Assembly (NCBI RefSeq): GCF_004010195.1
Contig: NC_057747.1
Location: 3,478,345 to 3,542,344 of the forward strand
Direction: 5' to 3'
DNA from: Chiloscyllium plagiosum
Taxonomy: Eukaryota
DNA length: 64,000 nt
Below, piece after piece: positions 1,846 through 51,049 of the stretch (position 1 is the stretch's first letter; each line of letters begins with the position of its first letter). Below the pieces are notes generated by a model. That model was not told where the DNA came from. It searched no databases and saw nothing but the letters and a program-made list of their open reading frames with translations. The position numbers were made by a program, and so were the translations under genes.

Positions 1846-1967
1846 TCAGACTGGTACAATGTGGAGCCCGAGAGATTCATCTTGCAGTTTCATGTGGTTG
1901 CCATAGTAACTAGTGGCGGTCATAGGCAGTGGCAGCAGTGGGGGGTGCAGCACCCCTGGATGCGGCA
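1846..1967 (-). CDS. pax2: Alternative terminal exon frame via an internal acceptor 19 nt downstream: MPHPGVLHPPLLPLPMTATSYYGNHMKLQDESLGLHIVPV*
   Basis: The AG at 1968-1969 (TTATTATTATAG|TGCCG) joins the phase-1 A of the previous exon to make ATG. The frame is visible in ORF 1846..2061(-) and resembles the recalled human PAX2 alternative C-terminus ending FGLHIVPV. Confidence 0.8.
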
Positions 1968-1986
1968 CTATAATAATAAGGGGAAC
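1910..1986 (-). CDS. pax2: Pax2-like terminal coding exon, canonical frame: (S)SPYYYSAASRGAAPPTAATAYDRH*
   Basis: Acceptor aactttcAG (AG at 1987-1988) and TAG stop at 1910-1912. Classic Pax2/5 C-terminus SPYYY...AYDRH. Confidence 0.96.
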
Positions 1987-3539
1987 CTGAAAGTTAACAC
2001 AGGAGAAGATGGACCAGTTGGAAGGACATATAAAACTTATCAGCAAACAGTGCCCACCCAACAGAAAGTTGGCTTGACCTTATTTTATTAGGGCAGTCCG
2101 CTCCCTGTGCCCTGGCCTGCTTCCACACACCAACGTATCGGCATCCACCCCAGTTGTGATCTCTTCAGATATTTTGTTTTCCCCAAATTGATCAAGCTGT
2201 TTCTCCCTATCTTTGGAAATTACAACTTCCTATTTATTATTTCATGTGATATGGTCACAACTGTCAAGCCAGACTTCATTGCCCATCCCGTATTGCTTGG
2301 CCATTTCAGAGGGAGGTGAAGAGCCAGCCATAATTGGGTCGGAGCCATATTTGGGCCAGAAGGGGTAAGGACAGCAAATTTCCTTTTGAGAACCAGGCAT
2401 GTTTGTACACCAACTGATGACAGCTATCACAGTCACTATTACTGAAACTAGCTCTATATCCAAGATCCTCTGATCAAACTGAATTTCCCCCAGCTGCTAA
2501 ACTGAGATTTGAACTCATGTTCCCAAATCATCAGTCTTGGCCATAGGATTACTAGTCCAGTGGCACTGCACCAGACCACGATCTACTTCAACACTGGGTG
2601 GAAAATGACTATCTTGCAATGTAAAAACAATTGTATTTATATGGGCCAAGTTGAATGGACCCAACGTTTTCTTTCTCTCAGAAGATTTCGAGTCTTTGGA
2701 ACTCCCATTCCCAAGAGATAGTTTCACTGAATATATTTAAGACAGATTCTTGACGAACAAGGGAATTGAGGGTAGGTGAGAATTTAGAGTTGAGGCCACA
2801 ATCAGATTGTATTAAATGATGCATGAGGTTGACTGGGTCAAATGACCTATTTCTGTTCCTAACTGGTATGTTAGCATGTTCAGAACATCCTTTCCTTGCC
2901 TGTCATCCTTTGACATTTTTGGCATCTCTCAGGCTTCCACCAATTCTGCTCTGAATCTTGCTTAAAAACTGCCGGGAAATCAAAGTGTAACAAGTGGCCC
3001 CAATTTTTACTTACTAAGTTACGTGGCAACACCTATGGTGGGGATGGCATTGAGCAGACATGAGTGAAAGACAGCTGAGCAAGTTGGCAACAGTCTGTGT
3101 GCCAGAGCGTAATGCTGTCTCCATGGCATTGCTCAGAATTCCCTTTTGCGGTGTTACAAATTTCTGACAGTCCAATAAAAATTGTCAGCTAAAATTCACT
3201 TCCAAAGCTTTATGTCAAACAACAACTTGCATTTGTATAGCACCTTCAAAAGGCAGGACAGTGGAGTTAAGGATGATCAGATCAGCCATGACTGGCAGAG
3301 CAGACTCAATGGGCTGAATAGTCTACTTCTTGTTATATGGTGGATCAAAAGGGTATTATTGAGCCACTTCAGGAAATATTAAACAGATGATAATGCTTGG
3401 TCCATTGGGAAGTTTTAAGGAGCATTTTAGTTTGGGAGAGCAACAGAGGTGGAGAGTTTAAGGAGCGAATACTATAGTTGCGTGCTCAGGCAGTCAGTCA
3501 TCAGCGATAGCAGCATGCAATGGGTCAGAAGAAGTGGAA

Positions 3540-5277: not shown

Positions 5278-5665
5278 AATCATGGACAGCCTGCCTGGTT
5301 AATCCTGGCTCAGACAGCAATGTTCACCATCATTGTTCCTCTAAAAACCTGATCACCACCATTCCTGTTGGAGTTGAAATCATTCAAGTTAGCACTGATA
5401 CAGTCCAACACTCTGGAGTGTACTCATTCATTGACCCACCAAGGGAAACCCAAACATTAGTTAATTCAGGAATTCAAATGGTATTTATTTGGGGGAGAGT
5501 GAAGCAACATCACTGTATATGTGAAAACCAAAAGCAGTAACAGGAGCCCAGTTTTAAAAAAAAATCTATTTGCTGTTAGTTCTTAAGTTTAGATCACATT
5601 TATAGAAGCCTTTCTGAAGCAACAGACACAAAATAGGCAACAGCAATGATTCAGAAAATACTCAC

Positions 5666-5752
5666 TTAGTAATCCCGGGTTAGTGAAACGCCAGGCTTCA
5701 TTGTAGGTTGTGTATTGTGGATGAGTGTAAGGGTTTCCCGAAAATTCACTGC
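5666..5752 (-). CDS. pax2: Pax2-like penultimate exon (87 nt, phase 1->1): (G)[28 protein letters not shown](S)
   Basis: Acceptor tttctttccttAG and donor GTGAGT. Matches the Pax2/5/8 SEFSGxPYxHPQY...WRF motif, and NEAWRF is PAX2-like. Confidence 0.96.
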
Positions 5753-20208: not shown

Positions 20209-20346
<138 letters not shown>

Positions 20347-20380
20347 TTATACACAATCGAGAAATCACTTCATTACTGTA

Positions 20381-20680
20381 GATGTACGCGTGTGTTACTG
20401 TGTCTCTGTCTCTGAGTGTGTTTGTGTATGAATCAATCTCACAGTATATCAGAAGTGTATATATTTGAGTGCATGAATGTAAGTGTGTAAAAATGCATTT
20501 GTGTCAGTGTGAGTGAATGAGTTTGAGGGTGATAGTGAGATTGTGTGGTGAATTTGTGAAAGTGAATGCAGATATGACACTTGAGAGTGCGCACCTGTGT
20601 GTAAGTACATGTGTTAATGTGAGTGTAAAGGTATACATTTGTGAGGATGAATGTGAGTAAGTGTGTGAGAATGAGCAAAT
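20381..20680. repeat. Degenerate (TG/TGAG)n low-complexity tract
   Basis: Direct inspection. Confidence 0.8.
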
Positions 20681-20751
20681 CTGTATCCCCACATGTGAAA
20701 GTTTTGTATCAGGCATGATGATGGTCTGACCAAAGCTCACATGTTCTTCAG

Positions 20752-20947
20752 TACAAAGTTAAAAATCACACAACACCAGGTTGTAGTCCAACAGGTTTAA
20801 TTGGAAGCACACTAGCTTTCGGAGCGATATCAGGTGATAGTCGCTCCAAAAGCTAGTGTGCTTCCAATTAAACTTGTTGGACTATAACCTGGTGTTGTGT
20901 GATTTTTAACTTTGTACACCCCAGTCCAACACCGGCATCTCCAAATC
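20752..20947. mobile_element. Fold-back Penelope-derived element, family B
   Basis: About 75-bp near-perfect inverted arms GTACAAAGTTAAAAATCACACAACACCAGG...GGAGCGA / TCGCTCC...GATTTTTAACTTTGTAC, plus a 3' tail. Imperfect TSD GTTCTTCAGTA / GTTTTTCAGTA. Confidence 0.8.
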
Positions 20948-21204
20948 GTTTTTCAGTAAACAGTCTCAGATAATCACTCTGATCAGTCTGTTTAATCTAT
21001 GGCACTAAGCAGAGCATAATAGATTAAACAATTAAGAGACCAGGAGAAAATATCATTAACTGACCAGTAATTAGACTGTTGATTAATAAATTGCAAATAT
21101 TTTATTATCTTGTGCTCTCTGCAAAGCACAAAGGAGACAAAGCCAAAGTAGAATGCAGTCCACGTGAGCTGTTAAATGAGTATAGTCAAATTATACACTG
21201 AAGG

Positions 21205-21415
21205 ACACGTGTGTACACATTGATACTGAGACACATGCAGAGATACATGCACACACATCCACACAGCTACACACTGAAACACAAGTGCACAAGCATCCAC
21301 ACAAACACACATACATATCCACACACAAAAATACACGACTGCACACACAACAGTTACCCAAGCTCGCTCATTCACTTTCTCACGCACACATATACACACG
21401 CACACACACACACAA
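21205..21415. repeat. Degenerate (CA)n tract
   Basis: Direct inspection. Confidence 0.8.
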
Positions 21416-21677
21416 TAGTTCAGTTAATAGCACTGTTGCCTCGTTTCTGCGTCAGGAGTTCTGATTAGACCCTCTGTAGTCATTTTAAATAAATTTTATT
21501 TAAATTGGTATCAGCCACACTCCAAGACAATAAATCTTAAGTCACATTAAGGAATGGATTTATAAAGGAGACAGCCAAAAGATTGTTGATAGTCAGGGGC
21601 CAGGTTCATGCAGAATGCTTGGAGTGTTGATGTCGAGGGCTATGGTTCCTCAGATACCAACTTACACCAGGCCTTGA

Positions 21678-21939
21678 AAGTAAAAACCATTACCAACACT
21701 CCATCGTGGTACTGAGGAGGTGTCAGCTTTTAAATGAGACATCTAACTGAGGTCTCACCTCCATGTGGCACTATCCAAAGTAATCTCCAGGCAACATCAT
21801 AAAAGCAAAAACCATTACCAACACTCCATCGTGGTACTGAGGAGGTGTCAGCTTTTAAATGAGACATCTAACTGAGGTCTCACCTCCATAGTAATCCTTG
21901 TGGCACTATCCAAAGTAATCTCCAGGCAACATCATAAAA
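21678..21939. repeat. Tandem direct duplication of a ~125-bp unit
   Basis: AAAAACCATTACCAACACTCCATCG...CAACATCATAAAA occurs twice. The copies differ essentially only by a 10-nt indel (AGTAATCCTT). Confidence 0.92.
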
Positions 21940-22006
21940 AAAAAACTGTAATTTATCACATTGTTATTTGTGGCACCTTCCGTGAGCAAATTGGCTGCTA
22001 TGTTTC

Positions 22007-22888
22007 ACAACCCTGCACCGCCCGTTTCTACCTCCTGCCCAAAATCCACAAACCTGACTGCCCCGGCCCCACCGAACTCATCCCTGCATACCTCAACACG
22101 GTCCTGTCCCCCTTAGTCCAAGAACTCCCCACCTATGTTCGGGACACCACCCACGCCCTCCACTTCTTCATGAATTTTCAGTTCCCTGAGTACCCTTCTA
22201 CTGACACCCTTCTTCGACTGACTGAACTGGTCCTCACCCTGAACAACTTCTCTTTCCAATCCTCCCACTTCCTCCAAACCAAAGGAGNNNNNNNNNNNNN
22301 NNNNNNNNNNNNNNNNNNNNNNNNNNNNNNNNNNNNNNNNNNNNNNNNNNNNNNNNNNNNNNNNNNNNNNNNNNNNNNNNNNNNNNNNNNNNNNNNNNNN
22401 NNNNNNNNNNNNNNNNNNNNNNNNNNNNNNNNNNNNNNNNNNNNNNNNNNNNNNNNNNNNNNNNNNNNNNNNNNNNNNNNNNNNNNNNNNNNNNNNNNNN
22501 NNNNNNNNNNNNNNNNNNNNNNNNNNNNNNNNNNNNNNNNNNNNNNNNNNNNNNNNNNNNNNNNNNNNNNNNNNNNNNNNNNNNNNNNNNNNNNNNNNNN
22601 NNNNNNNCAATCTTCTTCCCAACCTCTCCACCCCCACCCCCTCTCCGGCCTATCACCCTCACCTTAACCTCCTCCCACCTATCGCATTCCCAATGCCCCT
22701 CCCCCAAGTCCCTCCTCCCTATCTTTTATCTTAGCCTGCTTGGTACACTTTCCTCATTCCTGAAGAAGGGCTTATGCCCGAAACATCGATTCCCCTGCTC
22801 CTTGGATGCTGCCTGACCTGCTGCGCTTTTCCAGCAACACATTTTTCAGCTCTGATCTCCAGCATCTGCAGTCCTCACTTTCTCCTCC
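22007..22888 (+). mobile_element. 5'-truncated, internally deleted Penelope-like retroelement (RT fragment, gap, pLTR)
   Basis: ARFYLLPKIHKPDCPG...YVRDTTHAL...LVLTLNNFSF...FLQTKG is typical PLE RT. 12-nt TSD CTGCTATGTTTC at 21995-22006 and 22889-22900. N gap at 22288-22607. Confidence 0.9.
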
Positions 22889-24289
22889 CTGCTATGTTTC
22901 CTGTCAGGTCAGGCTGTGGGGGACATTGGGTGCACAGGGGAGGGCATTGGGTCAGGGATTTGATGAGTCAGGGGATTGTCACATGGGGAGTGCAGTTGGG
23001 TTGGGTTTAATCCAGCAGTTACCTAGTTGAAGTGAGGAGGATATAAGTTCAGGGGAGGGCTCCTGGTGAGAGGGATCCTGATAAACATGATTCACCACCA
23101 AAATTTTCAATATCCTTGCCAATTCCTTCTAATCCCAGTTGACGCTGCTCCAACAACCATCTGAATATCTGGGACTATACAAATATACATTGTTGTTGAA
23201 TGCTTCAAAAACTTAATTTGAACATGAATGAAGATGAAAATTTTCATTGATACAGCGCTTTTCATGACCTCATCACATCCTAACTTCTTTATAGCAAATG
23301 AATTGTTTTTGGAGTTGCTCACTGGTGTCACATAAAACAGCACAGTTACAGGCAGCCAGGAGTCAGAACCAGTCAGTAGCCAAAACAATCTGCATTACCC
23401 TGGGACCCTTATTAGCAAAACACAATGCAAACTACTTTACAAAGAAGTTCATGAGAACAATGCACAATGTGATATACAAGAGAGCTGTCAGGAGCAAAGC
23501 TTACCCAATAAAATTAGTCCTGTTTGTTTGTTTGTTTGACCTGATTTGGGTAATACCCTTTGACAGATTCCCTGACAATTGAGGCTGCTGTGGGTTTTAG
23601 CTCCCAGCTCCAAAGGCCATAAGGACTCTATATGGGTTGGGCTCTTGTTTGAAACCAGTAATTCAGAGAGTGAACACCAACTGACAGGACTAAGAGGCCA
23701 CTCCCATTCCAACTCAGTGACTCACAAGCAAGGCCTTCGTGCAGTTAGGTATAATCTTACAAGAACAATTAGACAGGCTGTTTAGAAAAATTGTGTATTC
23801 GTTTGTTTATACAGTAACCAAAGATGACTCTCTGTCACCTCTATTCTTCCAAGCTGGTTTTGTTTGCATCCACTGTCTGGTTTTAATCTCCAGTAAAACT
23901 GAACAGGTAAGCCCCCAATCCATTAGTATCCAGCTGGGACTGCCTCCCAGTTCATCTTGTCGATATAAGTTAGTGTTGAGCTGGACTCAATTGTCACTGA
24001 GTAACAGTAGACTTTCTTGGTGTCAAGCAATGTTCGCATTCTTGCTGCTTTGTTCTGTGACTATTTAGACACCAGCCCCTGAAACCTGAGGAGATCCATT
24101 TCTTCAGCCTTAGCTGCTTCTGACATAGCTTCTCCAGCCAAGAGTTCACAGATACGTTAATTGATTTCGTAAAGCTTGCAGTGCCAACTGCTCCTCATCC
24201 TGAAGCTGACACAGTCAACACCAGCGTCAGATCCATCAGAGTTATTTCAAGGAAATACTGTGCCACTTTCTGGAAATTTTTCTTGAAGG

Positions 24290-24410
24290 ACCTGGACATC
24301 GCTGGCCAGGCCGGCACGTATTGCCCGTCTCTAACTGCCCTTGAGAAGGTGGTGGTGAGCTGTCTTCTTGAACCGCTGCAGTGCATGTGCTGGAAGTAGA
24401 CCCACATTCA
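24290..24410 (-). mobile_element. L2-group LINE/SINE 3' tail fragment
   Basis: ggacatcgctggccaggccggcacgtattgcccgtctctaactgcccttgagaaggtggtggtgagc is the reverse of the tail at 51530-51615. Confidence 0.6.
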
Positions 24411-24630
24411 AAGTTCAGATGCACAAATGAGAGAAAATGTGAGGGGCATCGAGACCTGACAACCCCGAAGGGATAGCGGATCTTTGATTTATATGCGTAA
24501 CTCCAAATAGCTCAATGTCCAAACTCCGACATGGGTAGGACAACAGTTGGGGCTAGGGGGGATCCACTCTTATTGTCATCTTACTTGTCCTTTCTCACTT
24601 GCTTGCCCTTGAATTTTCTCAGAAGCAGGT

Positions 24631-24692
24631 CGGGGGGGGGGGGGGGGGGGGGGGGCGCGGGGGGTGGGATCGGACANNNNNNNNNNNNNNNC
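24631..24692. repeat. Poly-G run next to a short N gap (24677-24692)
   Basis: Direct inspection. Confidence 0.9.
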
Positions 24693-25550
24693 GCTAACAG
24701 AAATCCTTAAATATCCAACAAATGGCCAGTTTGAGGTCTCTTAAAGCTCTGGCTCTTCTCTGCTGGGATTTTACCCACAGTGGGAGACACCAACCCCAGA
24801 TATCCAGCCTGCCCTGATGTGGCCAGGCAAGGTACTGGTGGTGTGCAGGGTGCAAACCTTTTGAGGTCCTATCAGAGACCAATCACTACCCTGTTCCCTC
24901 CTCATGCCAACTCCCATTCCCAATAATTAATTTCTTTCTCTACATCACTTCCTGAAGGTGAATACGTCCTTCATGCCCCTGTGTAAATATTACAGCATTC
25001 AGGATAATTTCATAATTATTTTCACTCCTTCTCCACTTGACTCTCTTAAACGCCCTTTGAAATCTATCTTTCTCTTCATCCCTGCAACTTGGGTTTCTTG
25101 GCTCTCTATCTATTCTTTTTTTCCTTGCTACCATAACGCTTCCTTCTGCAGGACCTCAAAGCTGGGGATTGAGGCAGAAACCCTCAACTCATTTAAAAGG
25201 AACCTACATCTGCATATGAAAATGCAAGACTGGTTTCTTACAATCACCAGTGACTGACCTCATCAATCCTCCTATCCTTTCTACCCTCAGTACTTGTCCT
25301 GCACAAAGGACCAATGCCTTGCCACTTGAGATCTCAATGAGACAGATGATTTTCCATGATAGATTTGGTGAGAATCTCACATTTATCCAACATGTATCCA
25401 GAGTTCCAGGCATGGAGATGATCTTTGTGGTCATGGACATTTGCCCACAAACCAACACAATATTCAAAACCTAATCTGAAAAGGCATCTGAAATCAGCGA
25501 TGTCATCACACACTCCTGGAACAGGCAGGACCTGAACCCAGGCTTCCTGG

Positions 25551-25766
25551 GGGAAAGTAGGTACTGCAGATGCTGGAGATTAGAGTCGAGAGTGTAGTGC
25601 TGGAAAAGCACAGCAGGTCAGGCAGCATCCAAGGAGCAGGAGAATCGACGTTTCAAGCATAAGCTCTTCATCAGGATTCCTAATGAAGGGCTTCCGCCTG
25701 AAACGCCAATTCTCCTGCTCCTCGGATGCTGCCTGACCTGCTGTGCTTTTCCAGCAACACACTGTC
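25551..25766. mobile_element. Fold-back Penelope-derived element, family A
   Basis: About 85-bp inverted arms centred on TCAGGATTCCTAAT. TSD AACCCAGGCTTCCTGG (25535-25550) / AACCCATGCCTCCTGG (25767-25782). Confidence 0.85.
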
Positions 25767-26000
25767 AACCCATGCCTCCTGGCCCAGACATAGGGACACT
25801 ACCACTGCACCACAAAGGCCTTCTCTCTTTACCATCTAAAAGTTAATGCTTAATATCTTACAGGGGACAATGCAATCAAATCAGGGAAGGTGGGGAGGGT
25901 GAGTAAGTAATAGTAGCAATGAGTAAAACAATTTGACAAAAAAACCCCAATGAACTGTGGATGCTGGAAATCAGAAACACAACCAGAAAAACTCAGCAGG

Positions 26001-26325
26001 GAGAAAGTCAGGACTGCAGATACTGGAGACCAGAGTTGAAAAGTGTGGTGCTGGAAAAGCGCAGCAGGCCAGGCAGCATCCGAGGAGCAGGAGAATTGAC
26101 ATTTTGGGCATAAGCCCTTTTTCAGGAATGAGGCTGGTGTGTGAAGCAGGCTGAGGTNNNNNNNNNNNNNNNNNNNNNNNNNNNNNNNNNNNNNNNNNNN
26201 NNNNNNNNNNNNNNNNNNNNNNNNNGGAAGATGAGGCGCTCTTCCTCCAGGCGTCGTGTGGCCAGGGTCTGGCGATGGAGGAGGCCAAGGACCTGCATGT
26301 CCTTGGCGGAGTGGGAGGGGGAGTT
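26001..26325 (-). mobile_element. 5'-truncated Penelope-like element (GIY-YIG C-terminus plus pLTR) nested in an older PLE-derived repeat
   Basis: Revcomp encodes FNSPSHSAKDMQVLGLLHRQTLATRRLEEERLIF. TSD AAACTCAGCAGG at 25989-26000 and 26326-26337. Gap at 26158-26225. Confidence 0.85.
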
Positions 26326-27567
26326 AAACTCAGCAGGTCTGGCAGCATGTGTGGAGAAGAAGCAGATTTAACATTACAGGTCTAGCGACCCTTCTCCAGA
26401 ACCAATCTGTAAAACAATGTGATCTGTTCTTATTGTGAATATCAATCTCTATCCTAACAGACAACACCTTACATATCTTATTTTCAGTTTTCAATCATAT
26501 TGGACTGAGAGTTACTGTGCTGGAAAGCAATGTAGGTCTTTTCAAAACATAACTGTAGAACTGTAACAGCACAGAAGAAAGCCACTCAGTCCATCCAGTA
26601 CTGGCACTCAGAGAAACTCTCCCTGTAACCCAACACATTCTCCCTTTGTAACATTTTGAATGCTTTGATTGAAAGAAGACCACTTTAATTTCAAACATAA
26701 TGTCTCTGTTTATTGAATATTGGACTCAACAAAAAATGAGCCTCCATTTTCATCCCAACTTTCAGTCCTCACAATATTGCCGAAAAATCTAATACTTGTA
26801 AAAGAAACATAAATATCGTCAATAGTACCCGAATCACACACTGGACTTGAAAATTGCTTTACGGTCAATGATTTATGTTTGAAATGCAGTCACTGTTATC
26901 TCAGCATCCAATTTACATGCAGTGAGGCTGAACAAACAGTAATAAGATGAATGTTCCTTTAATCTCTTTTGGTCTTGTTGATTAAGGGGTGAATTTTTGC
27001 CAGGATATCAGAAAAATCCTTCTTTTCCTTTGAACAGTGCCACAGAATCTTCTACATTCCCCTCATCAGCCAAACAGATCCTGAGTTTAACAGTTCACCT
27101 CAGAGAACAGTACATTCAACACTGGGATCATGTGACAACCATCAAGTTGTGATCACGTCCTGGTTGAGACATGAAAGAATCTGCAGCCCAGTGAATGTTG
27201 GCAGCAGCTTGTCCAAGTTGCCATTTACCTTTTAGAGGCTCCAGTAAAGCAAAAAATAGTCAAAAGGTCAAAACGCCAGAGTTCCTTGGGATAGGCTTGT
27301 CGGATCCAACTGAGGAGCACCAATATCTCATCAAAAAGTCTATTAACTTCAGTCATAGTTTACTAGACTATTCGACGGTGCCAGAGTTGCACAGAATCTG
27401 TTACAGCTCAGAAACTACCTCATTGGCGGAACCGGTCAAAGTCAGTGTTAATGCTCCACACAAGCCTCATTAGGAATGGGAGATCGTCAACCCCCTCAAG
27501 CCTCTTCCATCACTCAATTAGATCCTGCTGACCTATCCCTATATTCTGTTTACCTGCCTAGTATTTT

Positions 27568-28341
27568 TCTATTCATTCACGGGATGATGGCATCACTGGC
27601 CGTGTCAGCATTTTTTGCCCATCCCTAATTGCCCAGAGGAAAGATGAGAGTCAACCACATTATTGTGGGTCTGGAGTCACATGTAGGCTAGACCAGGAGA
27701 GAATGGCAGTTTCCTTCCCTAAAAGACATTAGTGAACCAGATGGGGTTTTCCAACAATCCAACAATGGATTCATCATCATCATTAGATTCTTAATTCCAG
27801 ATATTTATTGAATTCAAATTCCATTATCTGCTGCAGCAGGATTCAAATCCGGGTCTCCAGAACATTACCTGGGTCTCTGTGCTTGACAACAGAGAAACAA
27901 TTTGGAATCATTTCTGTATCTTTGTAGGTGAATAAACCAATATTCAACAAACAGAGACATTATGTTTGAAATTAAAGTGGTCTTCTTTCAATCAAAGCAT
28001 TCAAAATGGGACTAGGCAACTGTTACAAAGGGAGAATGTGTTGGGTTACAGGGGGAGTTTCTCTGAGTGCCAGTATTGGATGGACTGAGTGGCTTTCTTC
28101 TGTGCTGTTACAATTCTACAGTTATGTTTTGAAAAGACCTACATTGCTTTCCAGCACAGTAACTCTCAGTCCAATATGATGGAAAACTGAAAATGAGATT
28201 TGTAAGGTGTTGTCGGTTAGGATAGAGATTGATATTCACAATAAGAACAGATCACATTGTTTTACAGATTGGCTCTGGAGAAGGGTCGCTGGACCTGTAA
28301 TGTAGTAATCCAGTGATAATAAAGCTAGGCCATCGCCTCCC
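27568..28341 (-). mobile_element. tRNA-derived SINE with a (TGAA)n L2-type tail, interrupted by a 426-nt templated insertion at 27878-28303
   Basis: The head revcomp GGGAGGCGATGGCCTAG... is at 28341 and the body resumes at 27879. Compare the uninterrupted heads at 56030-56126 and 63786-64000. Confidence 0.8.
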
Positions 28342-28459
28342 TTTAATCTTTAATTCCCTCATCTCGGAAAAATGTAAAACTCTCTCATTCTGTCTTATGT
28401 CACACCATCAACATATTATTCAAATCCTTTCTCCATCATCTACCTTTCCTCAGATCGTG

Positions 28460-28741
28460 ACATAGAACATAGAACAATACAGCACGGAACAGGCCCTTCT
28501 GCCCACGATGTTGTGCCGAACATTTGTCCTGGCTTAAGCACCTATCCATGTGCCTATCCAATTGCCGCTTAAAGGTCACCAAAGATTCTGACTCTACCAC
28601 TCCCACAGGCAGTGCATTCCATGCCCCCACCACTCTCTGGGTAAAGAACCCACCCCTGACATCTCCCCTATACCTTCCACCCTTCACCTTAAATTTATGT
28701 CCCCTTGTAACACTCTGTTGTACCCGGGGAAAAAGTTTCTA
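28460..28741 (-). mobile_element. Young CR1 LINE 3' end
   Basis: KGGRYRGDVRGGFFTQRVVGAWNALPVGVVES, with tail (TTCTATG)n. Confidence 0.88.
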
Positions 28742-29344
28742 GTGACGGTACATTATTTAGAGAGCCTGACAGTTTCACCAATGGAATATTGTGGAAATGA
28801 TTTGCAAACCACTTGTTGGTTACGTTTAAAAAGGTTTGCCCATTTTATACATGTTGCATTAAGTTTACGTAGAGCACGTCAACTTGCCAATTATGTCACA
28901 AGTCCAAACAAAACCCTCCAGATGTTTACTGCACAGTAAAGAAGAGTTCACATCTCATTCATTTTAAATAGGTTATGCTAATCTCTGCAACATAAAATCC
29001 ACAAGATCAATAACTTCAATCACTTAATTGACAGTGAAAACATTTCATGATATTCTAGATAATATAGAAATAAAAAATGTAATTGTCAGTACTTTTGAGA
29101 ACAATGGTGTTATTAATGTAGAATTCAAAATGCACTGTGTGTTAATGAGCACACCATTCCACCAGAGTTTCGTTTCTAACCTTATCAGATGAAAGACTGT
29201 CTTGAAGGAGATGAAAAACTCTTACCTACTAATTTTATTTCCATTTAAAATGCCTTCCCCATCACCCCACCAATACAACATAAGGCCAGCAACTGAGGAC
29301 AGGTTGATGGATAACACTCAGATGGTAAGAGTCATGAGAGGCAG

Positions 29345-29615
29345 AGAATGAATATTAGAGAGGACACAAGGTCAAACATTTTTACCTGGAGCATTGTGGG
29401 CGCTTGGAATTGGTTGCTCAGTTTGGGAGTTGAGGCAAAAGCCCTCAACTCATTTAAAAGAAACCTGGATCTGCATCTGAAAATGTTGTCATCTGAGAGG
29501 CAACGGGTAAGGTCTGAAAATGCAGGATTAGAATGCTTGGTTCGGTTATTCAGCTGGCACAGCCAATGATGAGCTGAATGGCCTCATTCTCTGCCATAAG
29601 GTTTCTCTGATCCTG
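29345..29615 (+). mobile_element. CR1 LINE 3' end
   Basis: TRSNIFTWSIVGAWNWL...EAKALNSFKRNLD. Confidence 0.75.
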
Positions 29616-30554
29616 AGACAGAGAGTCACAGGGCTGTGTGGGTTCATTGTGTGTTGTGCCCAATTCTGACATAATTAATTCTGCATGTCAGTAAATTGAG
29701 TCCCGTGGTCATTCATAAATACAAAGGGTGACTCCCAAGTTAGAGTAGCTGACGCCATCGTTATATGTAATCAAGACTCTCAATGACAAGAAAAATATTG
29801 CCAGCTATGAAGTTTGGGACTGAGTTTTCTGCAACTGATGATGGGTCAGGACTGATGGTGAATGGCAATCCTAGGGACTTTATTGCCTCTGCGACTGAAG
29901 TCATCAACAACTTGAAGTCTGGAGCTATTGCTTAAAGTCCCATGAAAGGATGGATTAGAATAGTTAGATGGTTGTTTTTGACTGGCATGGATGCGATCAG
30001 CCAGAGGGTCTTTCTCTGTGCTGCAGATCTCTATGACTCTGTGAGAGATGGAGAGCAGTGAGCCAAAGATAGGAGATCCTTAAGGCAGTACATGGATCAA
30101 TGACCAATGGATTATTATGCAGCGCATTGAGGAAACTGGACAGCCACTGGGACATAAAAAGGGTTGGTTGGTATATTCACCTACAAAGATACAGAAATGA
30201 TTCCAAATTGTTTCTCTGTTGTCAGGCACATTAAGAAGGGCTCCACCAGTGAGTCACAAATCTAGTGTATCCTAGCAACCAGATCAATCCCATGATTTGG
30301 AATGAGAATGCTGTACAGCTGTTTGATGCCAACCAGCAGCAGTAGAGATCCATCTGCATGGACAAACTGACTGCACAGACAGAAGGTCTTAAAGAATTAG
30401 ATAAATGATGATGGTGGAGCCCACACTTCATCACCCAGTTAACAGTAATGTGGAAGGCAGACAGAGTCTTCCAGTTGGCACTCTTGAAAGTTGCACTACA
30501 TGACAGAGAAGAAAGGATCTTAGAATAGGGCCAGAAAACACCAATTCAAAATGG

Positions 30555-31230
30555 CAGCAAGAATAGGCCATTCAGCCCCTAATCCATCATTTGACAAAAT
30601 TATGGCTGATCTGGTTGCCATCTCTTCTTTCTGGTCTACCACATCATACCTCCCTTATCACTGAAACATCGAAAATAGGAAGAGGAATAGGCCATTCAGC
30701 CTTCAAGCCAGCTCCACCATTCAAGACGATCATGGCTGATCTTCCGACTCAGTCGCCTTTCCCACTTTCTCCCCATACCCTTTGATCCCTTTAGCCCTGA
30801 GAAATATATCTACCTCCTTTGTGAAAATGCTTGATATTTCAGCCTCAACCGCTTTCTGTGGCAGAGAAACCCACATACTCACCAGTCTCTGGGTGAAAAG
30901 GTTTTCCTCATCCTAGTCCTAAATTGTCTACGCTATATCCTGAGAGTGTGACACCTGGATCTGGTCTTCCCAGTCATTGGGAACATTCATCCTTTACCCT
31001 GTTTAGTTTTATTAAAATGTTATAGATTTCTATGCAATTCCCTCTCATTCTTTAAACTCCAGTGAATACAGTCAAATCTCTTTTCACAGGTCAGTTCAAC
31101 CGTCATACACAAAGAGTTTACCTAACTCTCTCTTAAAAATGTTCAAAGGTCTTATTTCCACTCGTTTCTAGGGAAAAGAATTTCACAGATAAACAAACTT
31201 ATGAGTGAAAAAGAAAATTCTCTTCATCAT
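30555..31230 (-). mobile_element. Nested CR1 LINE 3' ends
   Basis: Two tails (aataggccattcagcc...) and reverse ORF2 C-terminal motifs. Confidence 0.75.
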
Positions 31231-31234
31231 CATC

Positions 31235-32340
31235 TAAAAGATTCTAAAACAAGGCAAACTGGGTCCAATATTGGGGCTTACAAACAGGCAGCAAAGGGTG
31301 ATGGTGGAGAGTTGCTTTTGTGATTTGAGCCTGTGACCAGCAAGGTACCACAGAGACCGGTGCCGTGCGCTTGCTGTTTGCTATGTACATTGACGACTTG
31401 GATACAAATGTAGAAGGTATAATTAGTAACTTTGCAGATGACACAAAAATTGATGGTGCTGTTGATAGCCAGGAGAATGGGCCCAGGCTACAGACCAATT
31501 GTGATCAGCTGGTAAATTGGGCAAAGCAATGGCAGATGGAATTTATTCTTGATAAGCGTGAAGTGATACACTTTAGAGGTCTAATGAGGGAAGGGGTTAC
31601 ACAATGAATACAGGTCCCAAGGGAGTACTGAGGAATAAAGAGGTTTTGGTGTACAAGTCCATAGATTGTTGAAGGTGTCAACACAAGCAGCTAGGGTTGC
31701 AAAGAAGACATACAGAATGCTTGCCCCAATTAACTGGGGCATAGAATATAGGAACAGGGAAGTCTTGTTGCAACTTTATAAAACATTGGTTCAGTTAAAG
31801 ATGGAATACTGTGTGCAGTTCTGGTTGCCACACTGTTGGAAGGGCGGGATTGCACTGGAGAGGGTGCAGAGGAGATTCACCAGGATGTTGTCTGGAATGA
31901 AAATTCTCAGTTATGAGGAGAGACTGGATAGGCTGGGCTTGTTTTCCTTGGATCAGAGAAGGCTGAGGAGCAATCTGATTAAGGTGCACAACATTATGAG
32001 AGGTATAGACAGAGCAGATCATGAGAATCTTTTCCCCATGGCAAACCTGCTTAAAATTGAAAATCGTGAGTTTAAAGTGTGCAGTAAGTAGTTTAGAGCA
32101 GAACTAAGGAAAACACGGAAGGTAGAAGCATAATATGCTCTGCCCAGGAGGCTGGTGGAGACATGTACTCCTGCAGGATTTAACAAGCATCTGGATGAGT
32201 GCTTAAAATGCCAGAATAGTGCAGGCTATGGAGAAAATGCAGGTAAATGAGATTAATACAGTAGGATGGTGTTTGTGGGTCAGCATAGAGATGGTGGGCT
32301 GAAGGGCCTGTTGCTATGCTGTATGACTCCATGACTATGA
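31235..32340 (+). mobile_element. CR1 LINE, RT C-terminal half to 3' end, degenerate
   Basis: MYIDDLDTNVEGIISNFADDTKI (RT FADD motif), EYCVQFWLP...LERVQRRFTRM, and tail CTCCATGACTATG. Confidence 0.92.
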
Positions 32341-32344
32341 GAAG

Positions 32345-32695
32345 ACTCTTTATTTTTAAAATGTATCCCCTAGTTTCAGTCCCTCCTACAAGGGGAAACA
32401 TCCTTTCAGCATCCATTCTTTTAAGCCCTATAAGAATCCTCCAAGCTTTAATAAGATCACTTCTCAGTCTTATAAATTCGAATGAAAACAGGCACAACGT
32501 AGCTATCCTTTTATTATAACAAACCCTTCATCCCAGGAGTCAGAGCTTACTTTGAACAACTTTGACTGCAATTATATCCCTTTCCAAAATAAAGAGATTA
32601 AACTGTACAAGTATTTCAGATGATATACCAATGACCTGTACAACTGTAAGAAACCTTCTCTGTTTCTTTGTTCCATTCTTCTTGCAATAAAGCTC
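32345..32695 (-). mobile_element. CR1 LINE 3' fragment
   Basis: LFSFEFIRLRSDLIKAWRIL...MFPLVGGTETRG. Confidence 0.78.
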
Positions 32696-33060
32696 GAGTT
32701 ACTGAGGGGAGGATAGGATTCTGTTTGAGTTATGCACACCTTCATATTTTCAATGCACAATGCATGGGATTCCTGATGGATGGTAAATTCAACCTGGATG
32801 CAATCCTGGACTGAGAAGAAGTGAATTGCATCTTTATCCTTTTTGTCTTTACTTCGATGTAAATCCAAGTGCAGATTTGTTATACACTATGAGATATATG
32901 ACCAAATTAACTCCATTCCTGGTTAACACAGAACTTAGAACAGTACAGCACAGGAACAGGCCCTTCAGCCCACGATGTTGTGCCAAACATGATGCCAAAC
33001 TAATCCCTTCTGCCTGGCCTTGATCCATACCCCTCCATTCCTTACATGTTCATGTGCTTA

Positions 33061-35437
33061 GTGGCAGTTATGATGTTGTGGGGATAATGGAGACGTGGCT
33101 TCAAGTGGACAGGGCCTGGGAAATGAATATTCAAGGCTATACGTGCTATCGTAAGGACAGACTGATGGGCAGAGGGGGTGGGGTGGCCCTGTTAGTAAGG
33201 AATGATACTCAGTCCCTTGTGCGGGAGGACTTAGAATCAGGGGATGTAGAGTCCGTATGGATAGAGCTGAGAAATTCTAAGGGTAGAAAGACCCTCATGG
33301 GAGTTATCTACATGCCCCCAAACAGTAGTCTGGATGTAGGGTGTAAGTTGAATAAGGAGCTGAAATTGGCCTGTCGCAAAGACATTACTACAGTTGTTAT
33401 GGGAGATTTCAACATGCAGGTAGACTGGGAGAATCAGATTGGTAGTGAACCCCAAGAAAGGGAGTTTGTGGAGTGCCTCCGCCTACCCGGGGGGGGAAGG
33501 CAATTCTGGATCTGGTGTTGTGCAACGAACCGGATTTGATCAGGGACCTCGAAGTGAAAGAGCCATTAGGAGGTAGTGACCATAATACAATAAGCTATAA
33601 TCTGCAATTTGAAAGGGAGAGGGTACAATCGGAAGAGACAATATTTCAGTTGAATAAAGGGAACTATGGAGCTATGAGGGAGGAGCTGGCCAAAGTTCAA
33701 TGGTGCAATACCCGAGCAGGGATGACAGTGGAGGAACAATGGCAGGTATTTCTGGGTATAATGCAGAAGATGCCGGATCAGTTCATTCCAAAAAGGAAGA
33801 AAGATCCTAAGAGGAGGCAGGGGTGGCCATGCCTTACAAGGGAAGTTAAGAAACATATAAAGTCAAAAGAGAAAAAGTATAACATAGCTAAGATAAGTTG
33901 GAAAACTGAGGACTGGGAAGCTTTTAAAGAGCAACAGAGGATTACTAAGAAGGAAATACGCAGTGNNNNNNNNNNNNNNNNNNNNNNNNNNNNNNNNNNN
34001 NNNNNNNNNNNNNNNNNNNNNNNNNNNNNNNNNNNNNNNNNNNNNNNNNNNNNNNNNNNNNNNNNNNNNNNNNNNNNNNNNNNNNNNNNNNNNNNNNNNN
34101 NNNNNNNNNNNNNNNNNNNNNNNNNNNNNNNNNNNNNNNNNNNNNNNNNNNNNNNNNNNNNNNNNNNNNNNNNNNNNNNNNNNNNNNNNNNNNNNNNNNN
34201 NNNNNNNNNNNNNNNNNNNNNNNNNNNNNNNNNNNNNNNNNNNNNNNNNNNNNNNNNNNNNNNNNNNNNNNNNNNNNNNNNNNNNNNNNNNNNNNNNNNN
34301 NNNNNNNNNNNNNNNNNNNNNNNNNNNNNNNNNNNNNNNNNNNNNNNNNNNNNNNNNNNNNNNNNNNNNNNNNNNNNNNNNNNNNNNNNNNNNNNNNNNN
34401 NNNNNNNNNNNNNNNNNNNNNNNNNNNNNNNNNNNNNNNNNNNNNNNNNNNNNNNNNNNNNNNNNNNNNNNNNNNNNNNNNNNNNNNNNNNNNNNNNNNN
34501 NNNNNNNNNNNNNNNNNNNNNNNNNNNNNNNNNNNNNNNNNNNNNNNNNNNNNNNNNNNNNNNNNNNNNNNNNNNNNNNNNNNNNNNNNNNNNNNNNNNN
34601 NNNNNNNNNNNNNNNNNNNNNNNNNNNNNNNNNNNNNNTGGTTATCCACTTTGGTGGCAAGAACAGGAAAGCAGATTACTACCGAAATGGAGTCAAGTTA
34701 GGTAAAGGGGCGGTACAGAAAGATCTGTGTGTTCTTGTACATCAGTCAATGAAAGCAAACATGCAAGTACAGCAGGCAGTGAAGAAAGCTAATAGCATGC
34801 TGGCCTTCATAACAAGAGGAATTGAGTATAGAAGCAAAGAGATTCTTCCGCAGCTGTACAGGGCCCTGGTGAGACCGTACCTGGAATATTGCGTGCAGTT
34901 TTGGTCTCCAAATTTGAGGAAAGACATTCTGGCTATTGAGGGAATGCAGCGTAGGTTCATGAGGTCAATTCCCGGAATGGCGGGACTATCTTACGCTGAA
35001 AGATTGGAGCGACTGGGCTTGTATATGCTTGAGTTTAGAAGGCTGAGAGGGGATCTGATTGAGACGTATAAGATTATTAAAGGATTGGACACTCTAGAGG
35101 CAGGAAGCATGTTTCCGCTGATGGGTGAGTCCCGAACCAGAGCACACAGTTTAAAAATAAGGGGTAGACCATTTAGAACAGAATTGAGGAGAAACTTCTT
35201 CATCCAAAGAGTGGTGGCTGTATGGAATGCTCTGCCCCAGAGGGCAGTGGAGGCCAAGTCTGTGGATACTTTCAAGAAAGAGTTGGATAGAGCTCTTAAG
35301 GATAGGGGAATCAAGGGTTATGGGGATAAGGCAGGAACAGGATACTGATTGAGGATGATCAGCCATGATCATAATGAATGATGATGCTGGCTCAAAGGGC
35401 AGAATGGCCTACTCGTGCACCTGTTGTCTATTGCCTA
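33061..35437 (+). mobile_element. Young CR1-clade LINE ORF2: APE endonuclease, gap, C-terminus and 3'UTR; frameshifted near 33480
   Basis: VGIMETWL, GRGGGVALLV, VMGDFN, LDLVL and GSDHN are endonuclease motifs. The C-terminus IHFGGKN...GYGDKAGTGY* is open to 35348. Tail (TCTATTG). N gap at 33966-34638. Confidence 0.95.
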
Positions 35438-35485
35438 TTATTCAAAAGTCCCTTGAACACCCCCTTTAAATCCATTGCATCTGCT

Positions 35486-36456
35486 CCCAGGATGACCAAT
35501 TCCACTACAGAACATACCAGATGGCCTCCTTCTTCAAAGGCTGCAATTTCCCCTTCCACATGGTTGATGATTCCCTCCAGTGCATCTCATCCACTTCCTG
35601 TACCTCCGCCCTTGAACCCCACCCCTCCAACCGCAACAAGGACAGAATCCCCTTGGTCCTCACCTTCCCGCCCACCAACCTCCATATATATCATTCTCCA
35701 GCGTTTCTGCCACCTACAAACGGACCCCATCACCAGAGATATATTTCCTTCCCACCCCTTTCCACTTTCTGTAAAGACTATTCCCTCCACGACTGTCTTG
35801 TCAGGTCCACACCTCCCACCAAGCCAACCTCCCCTCCTGGCAGCTTCCCATGCCACCACAGGAATTGCAAAACGTGAACCACACATCCCTCCTCACCTCC
35901 GAATAAGGCCGCAAAGGAGCCTTCTACATCCATCAAAGTTTCACCTGCATTTCCTCACGTCATTTACTGTATCTGTTGCTCCCGATGCGTTCTCCTCTAC
36001 ATTGGGGAGACAGGACACCTACTCGTAGAGCGCTTCAGAGAACATCTCCGGGACCAATCGACCTCACTGCCCCGTGGCCAAACACTTCAACTTCCCCTCC
36101 CATTCCGCCAAGGACATGCAGGTCTTGGGCCTCCTTCATCGCCACACCCTAACCACTCAACGCCTGGAGGAAGAACGCCTCATCTTCCACCTCGGGACCA
36201 TCCAACCACATGGCATCAATGTGGATTTCACCAGTTTCCTCATTTCCCATCCCCACCTTATCGCAGTACCAACTCCCAACCCGGCACTTCCCTCATGACC
36301 TATCCTACCTGTTCATCTTCCATCCCACCTATCTGCCACACCTCGGCTCACAACCCCATTTTTGATGAAGGGCTCTTTGCCCAAAACATCGATTTTCCTG
36401 CTCCTCGGATGCTGCCTGACCTGTTGTGCTTTTCCAGCACCACACTCTTGACTCAT
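35486..36456 (+). mobile_element. 5'-truncated Penelope-like element (Cys-rich linker, GIY-YIG endonuclease, pLTR), frameshifted
   Basis: DRIPLVLTF, FPCHHRNCKT, VIYCICCSRCVLLYIGETG (from 35959), VAKHFNFPSH...EERLIFHLGTIQPHGIN. ATCTGCT flanks both ends. Confidence 0.92.
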
Positions 36457-37464
36457 ATCTGCTTCCACCACCATTCTTGGCAGTGCATTTCAGACTCTTA
36501 CCACTGTCTGCATAAAAAACCTATCCCTCACATCCCCTTTGAACTTTTCCCCTTCTCATCTTAAATGCATGTCCCTACTATTAGACATTTCAACTCTGGG
36601 AAAAAGATTCTGACTGTCAATGCTCTCTATGCATCATATAATTTTATCGACTTCTATCAAGTCTCCCCTCAGCCTCCACCATGTCAGAGAAAACAACCCG
36701 AATTTTTCTAGACTCTCTTCATAGCTCATGCGTGATGTGTGTATGTATTTGTGTTGCGCGTGTGTGAGCGTGTACATGTGCGTGTCAATGTGTGAGACTG
36801 AGAGAGACAGCAGCATGTAGGGATAGGTCTGGTCCATAATACCCTGTCTACGAGAACTCTGAAAGAAGGGTCAAGGTTGTGGCAGTCATTTATCTTTGCC
36901 AAAATCTCTCATGTGAAGCAATTTTGGTAATTTATAAGCCCATGCATGATAAGGGGTCTCCACAGCTTGAACACCTGAATTGCCAATAGACTGCTGATGG
37001 AATTGTCACTGCATGGTGAGGGAGGGTACCATGTGTTCTTGCCATGTTGCCATAGGAAGGTGATAATAGGTGCACAGTGAATTGTAATTTCCCATTATCC
37101 TATGATCCATAGGTAACTCCTTCCCATGGATGTGGGATCTCTCTGGAGCTGAGTGAAGTGATGAAGAATTTCAGAAATAAGTCAATCCATCGTGGAGGAA
37201 GGCCTGTCAAGGTCTACTCCGAGGAATATTCACAGAAAGGCAAGTGGAAATCTTAGCTTCTCAAAGTAAATGCAGGAAAGAGGAGCTAAGGATTATCAGA
37301 TCAGAAATGATCTCACTGAATGGCACAGCAGATCTGATGGGCTGAATGGCCTACTTCTGGTCCTATGACAACAAGGCCTTCTGCTCTTCTGTCCTTTGTT
37401 TTTGAATCAGTTACATCTTCATGTCTGTGAATGGTAGATCTTTGTTAAGCATCATAGAATATGA

Positions 37465-37635
37465 ACAATTCCAACATTTAAAAGGCATCTGGATGGGTAT
37501 ATGAATATGAGGGGTTTGGAGGGATATGGGCCAGGTGCTGGCAGGTGGGACTAGATTGGGTTGGGCGCTCTGGTAGGCATGGACGAGTTGGACCGCAGGG
37601 TCTGTTTCCATGCTGTACATCTCTATGACTCTATG
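37465..37635 (+). mobile_element. CR1 LINE 3' tail
   Basis: catttaaaaggcatctggatgggtatatgaat...gtctgtttccatgctgtacatctctatgactctatg. Confidence 0.82.
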
Positions 37636-39870
37636 AAGCAAAGGTGGCAAAATAAAGCTGAGGTATCGATCAGCTAAGGACAGCATTGAAATAATCTCAA
37701 GGGACTGAGTACCTCACTGCTCCTCCTAAGCAGCTCAGGGGAGGGGGAGGGGGTGTGGGTGGTGGTGGTTGGGAGGGGTGTGGGGGGTGCTGCTGAATGG
37801 CATTCTTCTGTTTTGACGGTTCTAATGATTAAGCAGTCATGGGAAATCTCAGATGAGAGTTCTGCAGCTCCTTGATTTTGCATGGATTCAGTGCAACCTG
37901 CGCAATGCACAATACCTGACAGACTATACTGTGGAAAGCTGAATGCTGACGGGCTGGGCTGCATGAATCAGACACAGGTTCCAAAGACACTTTTCAGTGA
38001 TTTCGTGTCTGGAATGCTTGCAAAAATGTGACGAGAAAATCTCGATTTTACACTCACCAGCATATGTTGTTTGCAGAGGAGCAAATGAGGGAAGACAGGA
38101 AGAAGAGGAAAAGTTGTCCAAATACCAAAAGAGGGCACAAGCGAAAAGAACAGGAAGATAAAATTAAAGGAAAATCCCTCTGCTAGTTAGTCAGTGACCA
38201 CCTGGTGAGAGTGGAGTCCATGAATGAGAAGCCTAGATGAGAAGCACCTGAACAACAAAGGAAGAAATAATCCTTTCTTTTCGGTTCTGGCCTAACCAGT
38301 TAGTCAAATCGTCAATCCACATATTTATAAGATAAGGCATTGCTTTGTTACGTAGCTGCACCATATCATTTCAGACTTCAAACAGTCCCCTTTATGACAG
38401 AGTGCATTTACTGTCGCTTTTCTGATGGTTTGCGTCTAATTATGTGAATTTTAATAAAGCACTCTCATATTAACCTGACACTGACAACTGGACATTATTG
38501 AGTTTAACTCTTTGTCCGTCAGTTGTTCTTGTATCTTTGTGGTTCACTTATAATGTCATGGCCAGTTCATCTGCAGGAAGCCAGATTACTGCCAGTGTTA
38601 CAGTCAGTCGAGCTGCAGTGTGCTATGCAGTTGAGAAGTCATTGCAGGCTGCAAAAGGAAACCATCCAGGGTGCACAACTGCGAATGTGATTCCTTGTTT
38701 ATCCTGAGTTAGCTGATATTAGACAAAGCAGGGCAGAGGCAGAACAATTTAGCCTCTAAGCCCTGTGGCCACCCCTTTCTCAGTCACTCTTCCGTAATTT
38801 TTTGTGTGCAATAGATGCTGATTAAGCGCAAGAGGTGGCTCAGAGTGATGCTGGATGTGAACAATTGTGGATATGTAATCTGTAATATTGCACTTTTTGA
38901 AGTGATGGGGAGAGAATTACCTCCTGAAATGAATCTCTTTGGAGCTCCTTGTTTGGAATCAAGAACGATTTGCAATGGTGAGGGCAAGAAAATGCTGCAC
39001 AGCTACTTTTTTAAAAGTAGTTGCAATATTAGAAAAGCACAGCCAATTTGCACACAGTATATTCCCACAAATCGTCATCTGACTTCAAACAATCTATGAT
39101 CGTGGGGACTGGGATTAGACAGAAGGGTGCCATAATGATGAAGAGTTTCTGCCTGTGGGTCACAGGGTGCCTGAATAAGAAAGCACCCCTTCCCCAAGTC
39201 AACTAGGTGGGCACCAATGAGGGACGGCAGAGGGTGGAGGACCCACTGTCTTGCACTGCTGCTGTGTCATTTTACCACAGTGGAAAATGTGGAGGTCAGC
39301 CTTCCAGTCCATTGAGGTGATTAACCAATCACTTTTCAGCCTTTTCCCACAGCTTCTGGCTATTTGGCAGTGGGGGGGCCACTCCTGCCTCAATGGGAGA
39401 CCACATCGGGAGCCCCGGTAGCTTCCTGGAGGCCTTATGGGAGAGTTTCCTTCTTATTCAGACACCATGTGTCCCTTGGGGGCTGCTCCTCAGCAATAAC
39501 CAATGTTGCCCTCATCACAGTGCCACCCCACTGTGTACCCTCCATTCTGACCACTCCCCCTCCAGTACGCCCAGATCACACACACAGTTGGTAGAGTGGA
39601 GATATCCCTGTAGCAACCTCCATTCCCAGTTGCGAATGATTGCTGGATTCCTTAAAGTGACAGTAGTCCCGGCGGTAACTGTTTCATTGCCTGACCCAGG
39701 TAAATTGCAGGTGGAGATCCCACGGTATGCCAAGGTGGGATCACCCCCTCCAGCTCTGGCCTGCTGCCAGAAACCACACTGCAACTGCAAATTTCAGCTC
39801 ACAGTTTGCCAGCTAGCTATTATCTTCAAGGGCGTACTGCAACTGAGCCCAATTTTGTCCTCCTTTACTA

Positions 39871-40135
39871 GGATAGCATGATGGCTCAGTGGTTAGCACT
39901 ACTGCCTCCCGGGATCTGGGTTCGATTCCACCCTCAGGCGACTGTCTGTGTTGAGTTTGCACATTCCCCCCACATATGTGTGGGTTTGCTCCGGTTTCCT
40001 CCCTCAGCCCAAAGATTTGTAGGTTAGGTGGTTTGGCCATGGGAAGTTGAGTGTGTGGGTCTCAGTGGGATGTTCTTCAAAGGGTTGGTGTAGACTTGAT
40101 GAGCTGAATGGTCTGCTTCCACAGTGCAGTGATTC
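39871..40135 (+). mobile_element. HE1-like V-SINE
   Basis: TGGCTCAGTGGTTAGCACT...GGTTCGATTCC head and V-domain. Confidence 0.82.
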
Positions 40136-40145
40136 AATATGTATG

Positions 40146-40335
40146 AAGTTAAAAATCTCACAACACCAGGTTATAGTCCAACATTTTGAAGCACTTGGTT
40201 GTGTCGCAACCACCTGATGAAGGAGCAGCACTCCAAAAGCTAGTGCTTCCAACTAAACCTGTTGGACTGTAACCTAGTGTCGTGTTATTTTTGACTTTGT
40301 ACACCCCAGTCCAACACTGGCGCCTCCAAATCATG
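40146..40335 (+). mobile_element. Partial fold-back Penelope-derived element, family B, with a hammerhead-like core at 40211-40245
   Basis: AAGTTAAAAATCTCACAACACCAGGTTATAGTCCAACA is inverted against 40260-40298. TSD AATATGTAT at 40136-40144 and 40336-40344. Confidence 0.82.
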
Positions 40336-45727: not shown

Positions 45728-45749
45728 AAGATCCATTTATGGCTTGGCT

Positions 45750-49527: not shown

Positions 49528-49579
49528 CAATGAACAGTTGATGGAACAACAAGGGAATGGATGCAGAACTAATGAGACA

Positions 49580-51035: not shown

Positions 51036-51049
51036 AAGAATAAATAAAT

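Follow-up and report, generated by a model that had tools for sequence, protein, structure and literature searches.

The shark form of PAX2d/e: two acceptors in the last Pax2 exon and an alternative C-terminal tail that is probably under protein-level selection

Background

Why should the last exon of a Pax2 gene be readable in two frames, each entered through an acceptor of its own, and is the second protein end kept because it does something or is it a product of splicing noise? The question is raised by the window analysed here, that is, the whole stretch of 64,000 nucleotides from Chiloscyllium plagiosum, whose minus strand carries the 3' part of the shark Pax2 gene. An earlier note on this DNA had described a second acceptor 19 nt inside the last exon, leading to a 40-residue tail that runs past the canonical stop, and had pointed to a human isoform of the same kind. 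Translation of both exon joins reproduced every number given there for coordinates, acceptors, stops and tail, and the human isoform proves to be real, PAX2d lacking the first 19 bp of exon 12 and stopping 64 bp downstream.

The shark feature is the known PAX2d/e splice variant, already annotated in sharks. The human and mouse PAX2d and PAX2e isoforms were reportedly described by Tavassoli, Ruger and Horst in 1997. They share with the shark form the use of the last exon, the 19-nt deletion, the new frame and the stop 64 nt downstream, and differ from it in species alone. The annotated shark and ray Pax-2 isoforms (P0002-P0010 among them), which are automatic annotations, have the same sequence as the one found here. 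In the literature, the available part of PMC2689858 describes PAX2d and PAX2e, with PAX2d as a 19 bp deletion; that of PMC8665868 likewise places the PAX2d stop 64 bp downstream and reports an extension conserved between human and mouse; and that of PMC9962628 puts an alternative acceptor in exon 12 and calls the function of the isoforms "not fully understood". Further context is given by excerpts of PMC4488758, PMC3288081 and PMC6157899. In a search that most subscription papers lay outside, no publication gave a comparison with sharks, a dN/dS value or a branch point for PAX2d/e. What the present analysis adds is that the tail looks protein-selected across jawed vertebrates.

Gene structure and the two exon joins

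The features on which the argument rests are the following.

20215..56724, minus strand: three upstream Pax2 coding exons, gene-identifying context (tblastn)
5666..5752, minus strand: penultimate Pax2 coding exon, 87 nt, a 100% tblastn match to shark Pax-2 records
5664..5665, minus strand: GT donor common to both splice forms
2031..2040, minus strand: two weaker branch-point-like motifs from a motif scan, with A at -45 and -54 from the proximal acceptor
1987..1999, minus strand: conserved intron end, with a branch-point-like heptamer and the proximal AG (1988-1987)
1968..1986, minus strand: 19-nt segment, the canonical start of the last exon together with the pyrimidine tract and AG (1969-1968) of the distal acceptor
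1910..1967, minus strand: dual-coding stretch, closed by the canonical TAG (1912-1910), in which the canonical frame dominates
1846..1909, minus strand: post-stop extension, open to the alternative frame only, 20 codons and TGA (1848-1846)

Exons at about 56724-56548, 43775-43620, 20328-20215 and 5752-5666, and the one from 1986 onward, match shark Pax-2 records by tblastn. The gene is Pax2: its exons match P0010 and P0002 at 100%, and the named matches listed are Pax-2. The paired box is located beyond the matched upstream exons, and the matching full-length record P0003 carries the Pfam domains PAX and Pax2_C.

Each of the two acceptors, at 1986 and 1967, follows directly on an AG, and they lie 19 nt apart. 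When translated from the window, 5666 spliced to 1986 yields the canonical tail of 25 aa, closed by the TAG at 1912-1910; 5666 spliced to 1967 yields the alternative tail of 40 aa, which runs to the TGA at 1848-1846, 64 nt beyond the canonical stop. The junction codon takes its first base from the last base of the penultimate exon and reads Ser with the proximal acceptor and Met with the distal one. The 40-aa tail is single-copy in the assembly searched, G000 (a single match at E 3e-18; the remaining four all at E>6). Pfam has no family matching it, and it is short and likely disordered. That the distal acceptor is spliced in this shark we infer from the annotated isoforms of sharks and of other vertebrates.

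Other ways into the alternative frame were also considered. A cassette exon in the last intron was rejected as chance: of the 31 candidate acceptor-donor pairs from a loose scan of that intron, the two that would lead into the tail in frame (4731-4712 and 3598-3555) were set aside because their sites are weak and find no support among the compared proteins. PAX2c was rejected as the form reaching the alternative tail, since its reading frame closes at the end of exon 11, ahead of any tail of the shark type; with its 83-bp exon 10 it resembles the C-terminal variants of Pax5 and Pax8 in likewise altering the C-terminal regulatory region by splicing. As regards the penultimate exon of the window (5752-5666, minus strand), its shifted frame is open until a TAA from the last three bases of the exon, as is reported for human PAX2c; the penultimate exon of the Pax5-like paralogue described below is open likewise, and the open shifted frame is possibly a by-product of shared codons.

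Several further observations concern the surroundings of the last exon. Six runs of N, 2308 bases in all, fall within the Pax2 introns (7962-8693, 22288-22607, 24677-24691, 26158-26225, 33966-34638 and 58310-58809), so that small cassette exons could be hidden there. Some frog Pax-2 isoforms (P0045, P0053, P0102 and others) have an extra in-frame, cysteine-rich exon of 33 residues before the penultimate exon; tblastn at E<=1 placed the extra exon of P0045 nowhere in the window. Past the stops, the coding strand of window positions 1-1845 contains no AATAAA or ATTAAA, and the first polyA-signal candidates stand about 600 and about 1040 nt beyond the window start (locus L007). The 3'UTR is thus at least 2.4 kb long if a canonical signal is used.

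The Pax5-like paralogue

With the penultimate exon as query, G000 yielded a second, separate locus on C2, with its penultimate exon at 140219020-140218934 (minus strand) and its last exon at G000:C2:140204523 (minus strand). We label it Pax5-like by comparison with the ends of Pax5 proteins. Its last exon has an AG at the same +18/+19, and the pyrimidine counts are the same as in Pax2 (13/17 and 12/17). The presence of the internal AG in both paralogues is attributed to the PYYYS codons found family-wide, of which it would be a by-product, and the internal AG and its pyrimidine content, being equal in the Pax5-like exon, were rejected as evidence. The proposal that the SPYYYS codons form an internal acceptor is therefore upheld as far as the AG itself goes, but the AG is weak evidence, given a paralogue that has it without the tail.

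Beyond this AG the two genes part. The shifted frame of the Pax5-like exon encodes 29 unrelated residues, and identity after the stop is 17/64. With the AG common to both, the Pax2-specific parts are the extension and the intron end. On the direct comparison with the Pax5-like last exon, which is without it, the tail is Pax2-specific and not Pax2/5/8-wide.

The intron end and the choice of acceptor

The window was compared with L008, the sole confirmed locus among 139 stretches matched in a scan of metagenome contigs. L008 was found by a peptide pattern taken from the alternative frame and then confirmed by tblastn, and it is called teleost-like because its tail resembles named teleost records (P0196). 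The two sequences are identical at 13/13 positions of the intron end and at 19/19 between the acceptors, as against 2/20 at intron positions -40 to -21.

In the last 60 bases of the intron the best branch-like heptamer has its A at 1994, at -8 from the proximal and -27 from the distal acceptor, and matches the U2-pairing consensus at 5/7 positions. L008 has the same motif at -8/-27. The best branch motif of the Pax5-like intron lies at -24, with none at -8/-27, and would seem suited to the proximal AG. A wider view of this place is offered by 29 gene calls whose reading continues across the intron end, collected with a pattern requiring NFQ or IFQ: 22 have VNFQ, 6 INFQ and 1 IIFQ, which puts Asn at the branch-like place in 28/29. 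The single record without it is P0195, teleost-like. Farther upstream, the two weaker motifs at 2031..2040, whose register is not kept in L008, are candidate branch points for the canonical splice.

According to the available part of PMC5378181, the lower limit from branch site to AG is about 8 nt, with steric hindrance up to 12-18 nt, and in human data a branch site near the upstream AG accompanies use of the downstream AG. By that limit the motif at -8 is a borderline case and could still serve the proximal AG. On balance we lean towards two branch points, one of the upstream candidates (-45, -54) serving the canonical form and the motif at -8/-27 the shifted form, which would make the motif at 1994 a likely splice switch. 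The choice would then be set at the branch point: the motif 8 nt before the first AG is likely too close to it, so that branching there would select the distal AG, 27 nt away, and branching further upstream would select the proximal one.

A different arrangement, which we consider possible though rather unlikely, has one upstream branch point for both acceptors, the choice being made by competition at the second step or by an exonic regulator, and the intron end serving as a protein-binding element or simply as part of a shared pyrimidine tract. It would accommodate the teleost-like P0195, which lacks the Asn at the motif, and the fact that branch motifs are short and degenerate; moreover, where alternative acceptors more than 12 nt apart are conserved, conservation is generally found in the intron upstream of them as well (PMC2018619, in excerpt). 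It is less easily reconciled with a conserved block of only about 13 nt that is centred on the branch-like heptamer, or with an A-containing motif that interrupts the pyrimidine tract at -8 and is kept in the shark and in L008, and not in Pax5.

The alternative tail across vertebrates

A protein search with the shark tail gave 346 matches, of which 120 were listed, and one with the bichir tail gave 302, again with 120 listed, adding sturgeon, gar, lungfish, zebrafish and other teleosts. Searching cluster representatives with a profile yielded 24 matches; the 20 that were identified include macaque, bats, whale, seal, carp, plaice and grenadier. The taxa with the tail comprise sharks, rays, bichir, sturgeon, gar, teleosts, lungfish, amphibians, reptiles, birds and mammals. 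Its occurrence from sharks through bony vertebrates means that the tail predates the shark/bony-fish split, and its range from sharks and rays to mammals bears out the date first proposed for it, in the jawed-vertebrate ancestor. Among the matches listed there is no human-named record and no lamprey, hagfish or chimaera name (226 of the 346 and 182 of the 302 matches stand outside those listed), and the taxa listed set only a lower bound on the age of the tail.

The length and stop of the post-stop segment are kept, as had been claimed. The tail is contained in 215 of 219 compared proteins, with exactly 20 post-stop residues in 215/215, under a pattern that allowed 16 to 36. It ends at the expected terminus in 199 of these and runs on through W in the other 16, presumably gene calls in which TGA is read as Trp. 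The distal junction is present in 177/219 proteins and is followed by the 40-aa tail in 177/177; nine records from Chiloscyllium, Stegostoma and Rhincodon (P0002-P0010) share an identical junction and an identical 40-aa tail. Four proteins gave no match: P0197, an unrelated repeat protein; P0213, an isoform with the canonical tail; P0217, a fragment; and P0200. The compared proteins are redundant by species, with many isoforms per species, and because they were found by likeness of the tail, lineages that had lost it would be missed. As for P0200, from the teleost Dissostichus, it departs from the conserved tail after 10 post-stop residues, which may reflect a genuine loss in one of the teleost duplicates or else an error of prediction or assembly.

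Conservation within the extension is uneven. The last P and V never vary over the 37 distinct 20-mers that follow the stop (P19 in 37/37); L15 and H16 are each present in 36/37 and G14 in 33/37, K7, L8 and Q9 stand at 32-34/37, position 6 holds only M, I, L or V, and positions 10-13 are free to vary. Changes in the tail end, LHIVPV, are rare and mostly conservative across these 20-mers. The shark tail and that of mammals (P0185, P0186) are of equal length and identical at 14/20 post-stop residues, and the tail ending given in the earlier note is matched exactly by macaque P0185, bat P0186 and whale P0184. At the codon overlapping the canonical stop, P0104 and P0188 have Asn where others have Ser; this would fit a change of TAG to TAA at the canonical stop, with both frames intact.

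The residue pattern also bears on the idea that the tail is translated and selected as a turnover signal, in which case a hydrophobic C-terminus would shorten the life of the protein and splicing would set the dose of Pax2, its partners remaining unchanged. Hydrophobic C-terminal tails can route proteins to degradation, and this tail has a hydrophobic end whose very last residues do not vary. In human disease, heterozygous truncations show PAX2 to be sensitive to dosage (PMC10931086, in excerpt). Nonetheless, residue-specific conservation (G14, H16, P19, K7, L8, Q9) exceeds what a generic hydrophobic degron needs, and Western bands appear in cell lines at the sizes of PAX2d and PAX2e, to which they were assigned by size only (available part of PMC2689858). 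We regard turnover as an improbable explanation of the tail.

Selection on the post-stop extension

Along the last exon, identity between the window and L008 is 50/58 in the overlap and 44/64 after the canonical stop, and falls to 11/64 in the following 64 nt. The 20 post-stop codons hold 20 differences, distributed 4/2/14 over codon positions 1/2/3, a third-position excess with a hypergeometric p of 3.8e-5 and a binomial p of 9e-4. By the Nei-Gojobori method pS is 0.68, pN 0.23 and dN/dS 0.15 (Fisher p=0.001), from a single sequence pair of 20 codons with dS near saturation (1.76) and with a bias toward synonymous differences, L008 having been found through its alternative-frame peptide. The other two sense frames of the segment give dN/dS values of 2.3 and 5.7, both with stops, and the antisense frames give 2.1, 4.2 and 0.30, the frame with 0.30 sharing third positions and containing a stop. 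Identical post-stop residues number 12/20 against a mean of 8.0 when the same substitutions are placed at random (p=0.008). The open frame as such was rejected as evidence for selection, since at the observed divergence it arises by chance in simulation with P=0.55.

The overlap (1910..1967) behaves differently from the extension. Its differences from L008 comprise 7 synonymous and 1 non-synonymous in the canonical frame and 1 and 7, respectively, in the alternative frame, where dN/dS is 3.6; the proline-rich first half of the tail thus drifts with the main frame. Main-frame pS is 0.43 in the overlap, against 0.68 in the post-stop codons and 0.66 between Pax2 and Pax5, a comparison over 18 codons that carries no significance test. 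Three features go beyond chance: the distribution of the differences over codon positions, the constant length, and the fall in identity past the second stop. As far as these alignments go, selection would seem evident only after the canonical stop, so that the protein-level selection first claimed for the tail is borne out for its post-stop codons, by one distant pair, and not for the overlap. The alternative tail is probably under protein-level selection and, on the same comparisons, likely functional.

Contigs of four runs were compared with positions 1300-1960. X11 and X14 gave no match, X6 gave short matches only, in a low-complexity part of the UTR, and X5 gave three contigs. Over 1655-1894 an X5 contig, from a closer relative, shows 20 letter differences, of which the 18 listed all lie at 1702-1798, and five indels between 1719 and 1812. 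No substitution is listed at 1813-1894, and high conservation in this contig continues for about 33 nt beyond the second stop, a sign that some constraint acts on the nucleotides as well. The segment 1813-1845 (minus strand), with no listed change in the X5 contig where the UTR beyond differs by about 11%, is not conserved in the teleost-like L008 and is possibly a shark-level UTR element.

It is very unlikely that 1846-1909 is simply a conserved 3'UTR element, with the distal AG a leaky by-product of the PYYYS codons and the peptide conserved through its nucleotides only: this would agree with the same internal AG in the Pax5-like paralogue, with the X5 contig unchanged over 1813-1894 (no synonymous change listed where about 1 is expected, a weak point), with the chance of an open frame (P=0.55) and with the finding that most alternative frames are without selection (10.64898/2026.05.28.727796, in excerpt), but it leaves unexplained the 14/20 third-position differences in the alternative frame (p=4e-5) and offers no account of the zero length change in 215/215 tails or of the drop in identity at the second stop.

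Discussion

The Pax2 tail can be set beside the ancient dual-coding regions that have been catalogued in other genes. In the available part of a 2026 preprint (10.64898/2026.05.28.727796), 105 dual-coding pairs show selection on each of their frames, at least 53 dual-coding regions go back to the jawed-vertebrate ancestor, and the extension test is the one used here. Such regions, as presented in excerpts of that preprint, PMC13160074 and PMC13247117, resemble the Pax2 tail in that a non-triplet splice yields a new C-terminus; in them too one frame dominates the overlap and selection is seen in the extension. PAX2 is not named in the main texts of these three sources, nor in the nine supplements of PMC13247117. 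Table S1 of PMC13160074 lists PAX2, and the NMD label of the entry suggests that it is probably the PAX2c-type shift of the penultimate exon.

We hold it probable that the locus represents the shark form of PAX2d/e, with two acceptors, a swap of the 25-residue for the 40-residue tail, a last stretch of 20 residues that is likely protein-selected and a choice of acceptor that is likely set by the branch point. Use of the second acceptor sequence would shift the frame and replace the canonical tail. Stop codons in the last exon escape NMD and, since both stops lie in the last exon, neither mRNA should be an NMD target. The likely product would be a Pax2 protein that binds DNA as before and whose C-terminal regulatory end differs. 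In its tail, the invariant hydrophobic terminus LHIVPV is likely the element that binds a partner, and the proline-rich first half, dictated by the main frame, is likely a passive spacer. The canonical tail, which we take to be part of an inhibitory domain, would be lost in this form, and the altered tail may affect transactivation; the C-terminal inhibitory domain is reportedly associated with work by Dorfler and Busslinger in 1996.

A bolder reading, which we think unlikely, is that a Pax2-specific branch point, in place since the shark/bony-fish split, constitutes a hard-wired switch from a tail shared with Pax5 to an LHIVPV-COOH ligand with a partner of its own. For such an end we considered the pattern of a class II C-terminal PDZ ligand. 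If this reading were true, the two Pax2 forms would have different jobs in the development of kidney, ear or optic stalk, and variants in 64 nt that resemble 3'UTR, or in the last 13 bases of the intron, could cause PAX2 disease.

For the preferred reading, that of a shark PAX2d/e with a probably selected tail, the implications are more modest. Protein-level selection on the tail would argue against splicing noise as the origin of PAX2d/e, and a single adenosine as candidate switch would make isoform-only alleles possible, through the branch motif or through a silent edit of the distal AG. If the tail has a function of its own, variants in the tail and at the intron end would merit attention in PAX2-related kidney and eye disease.
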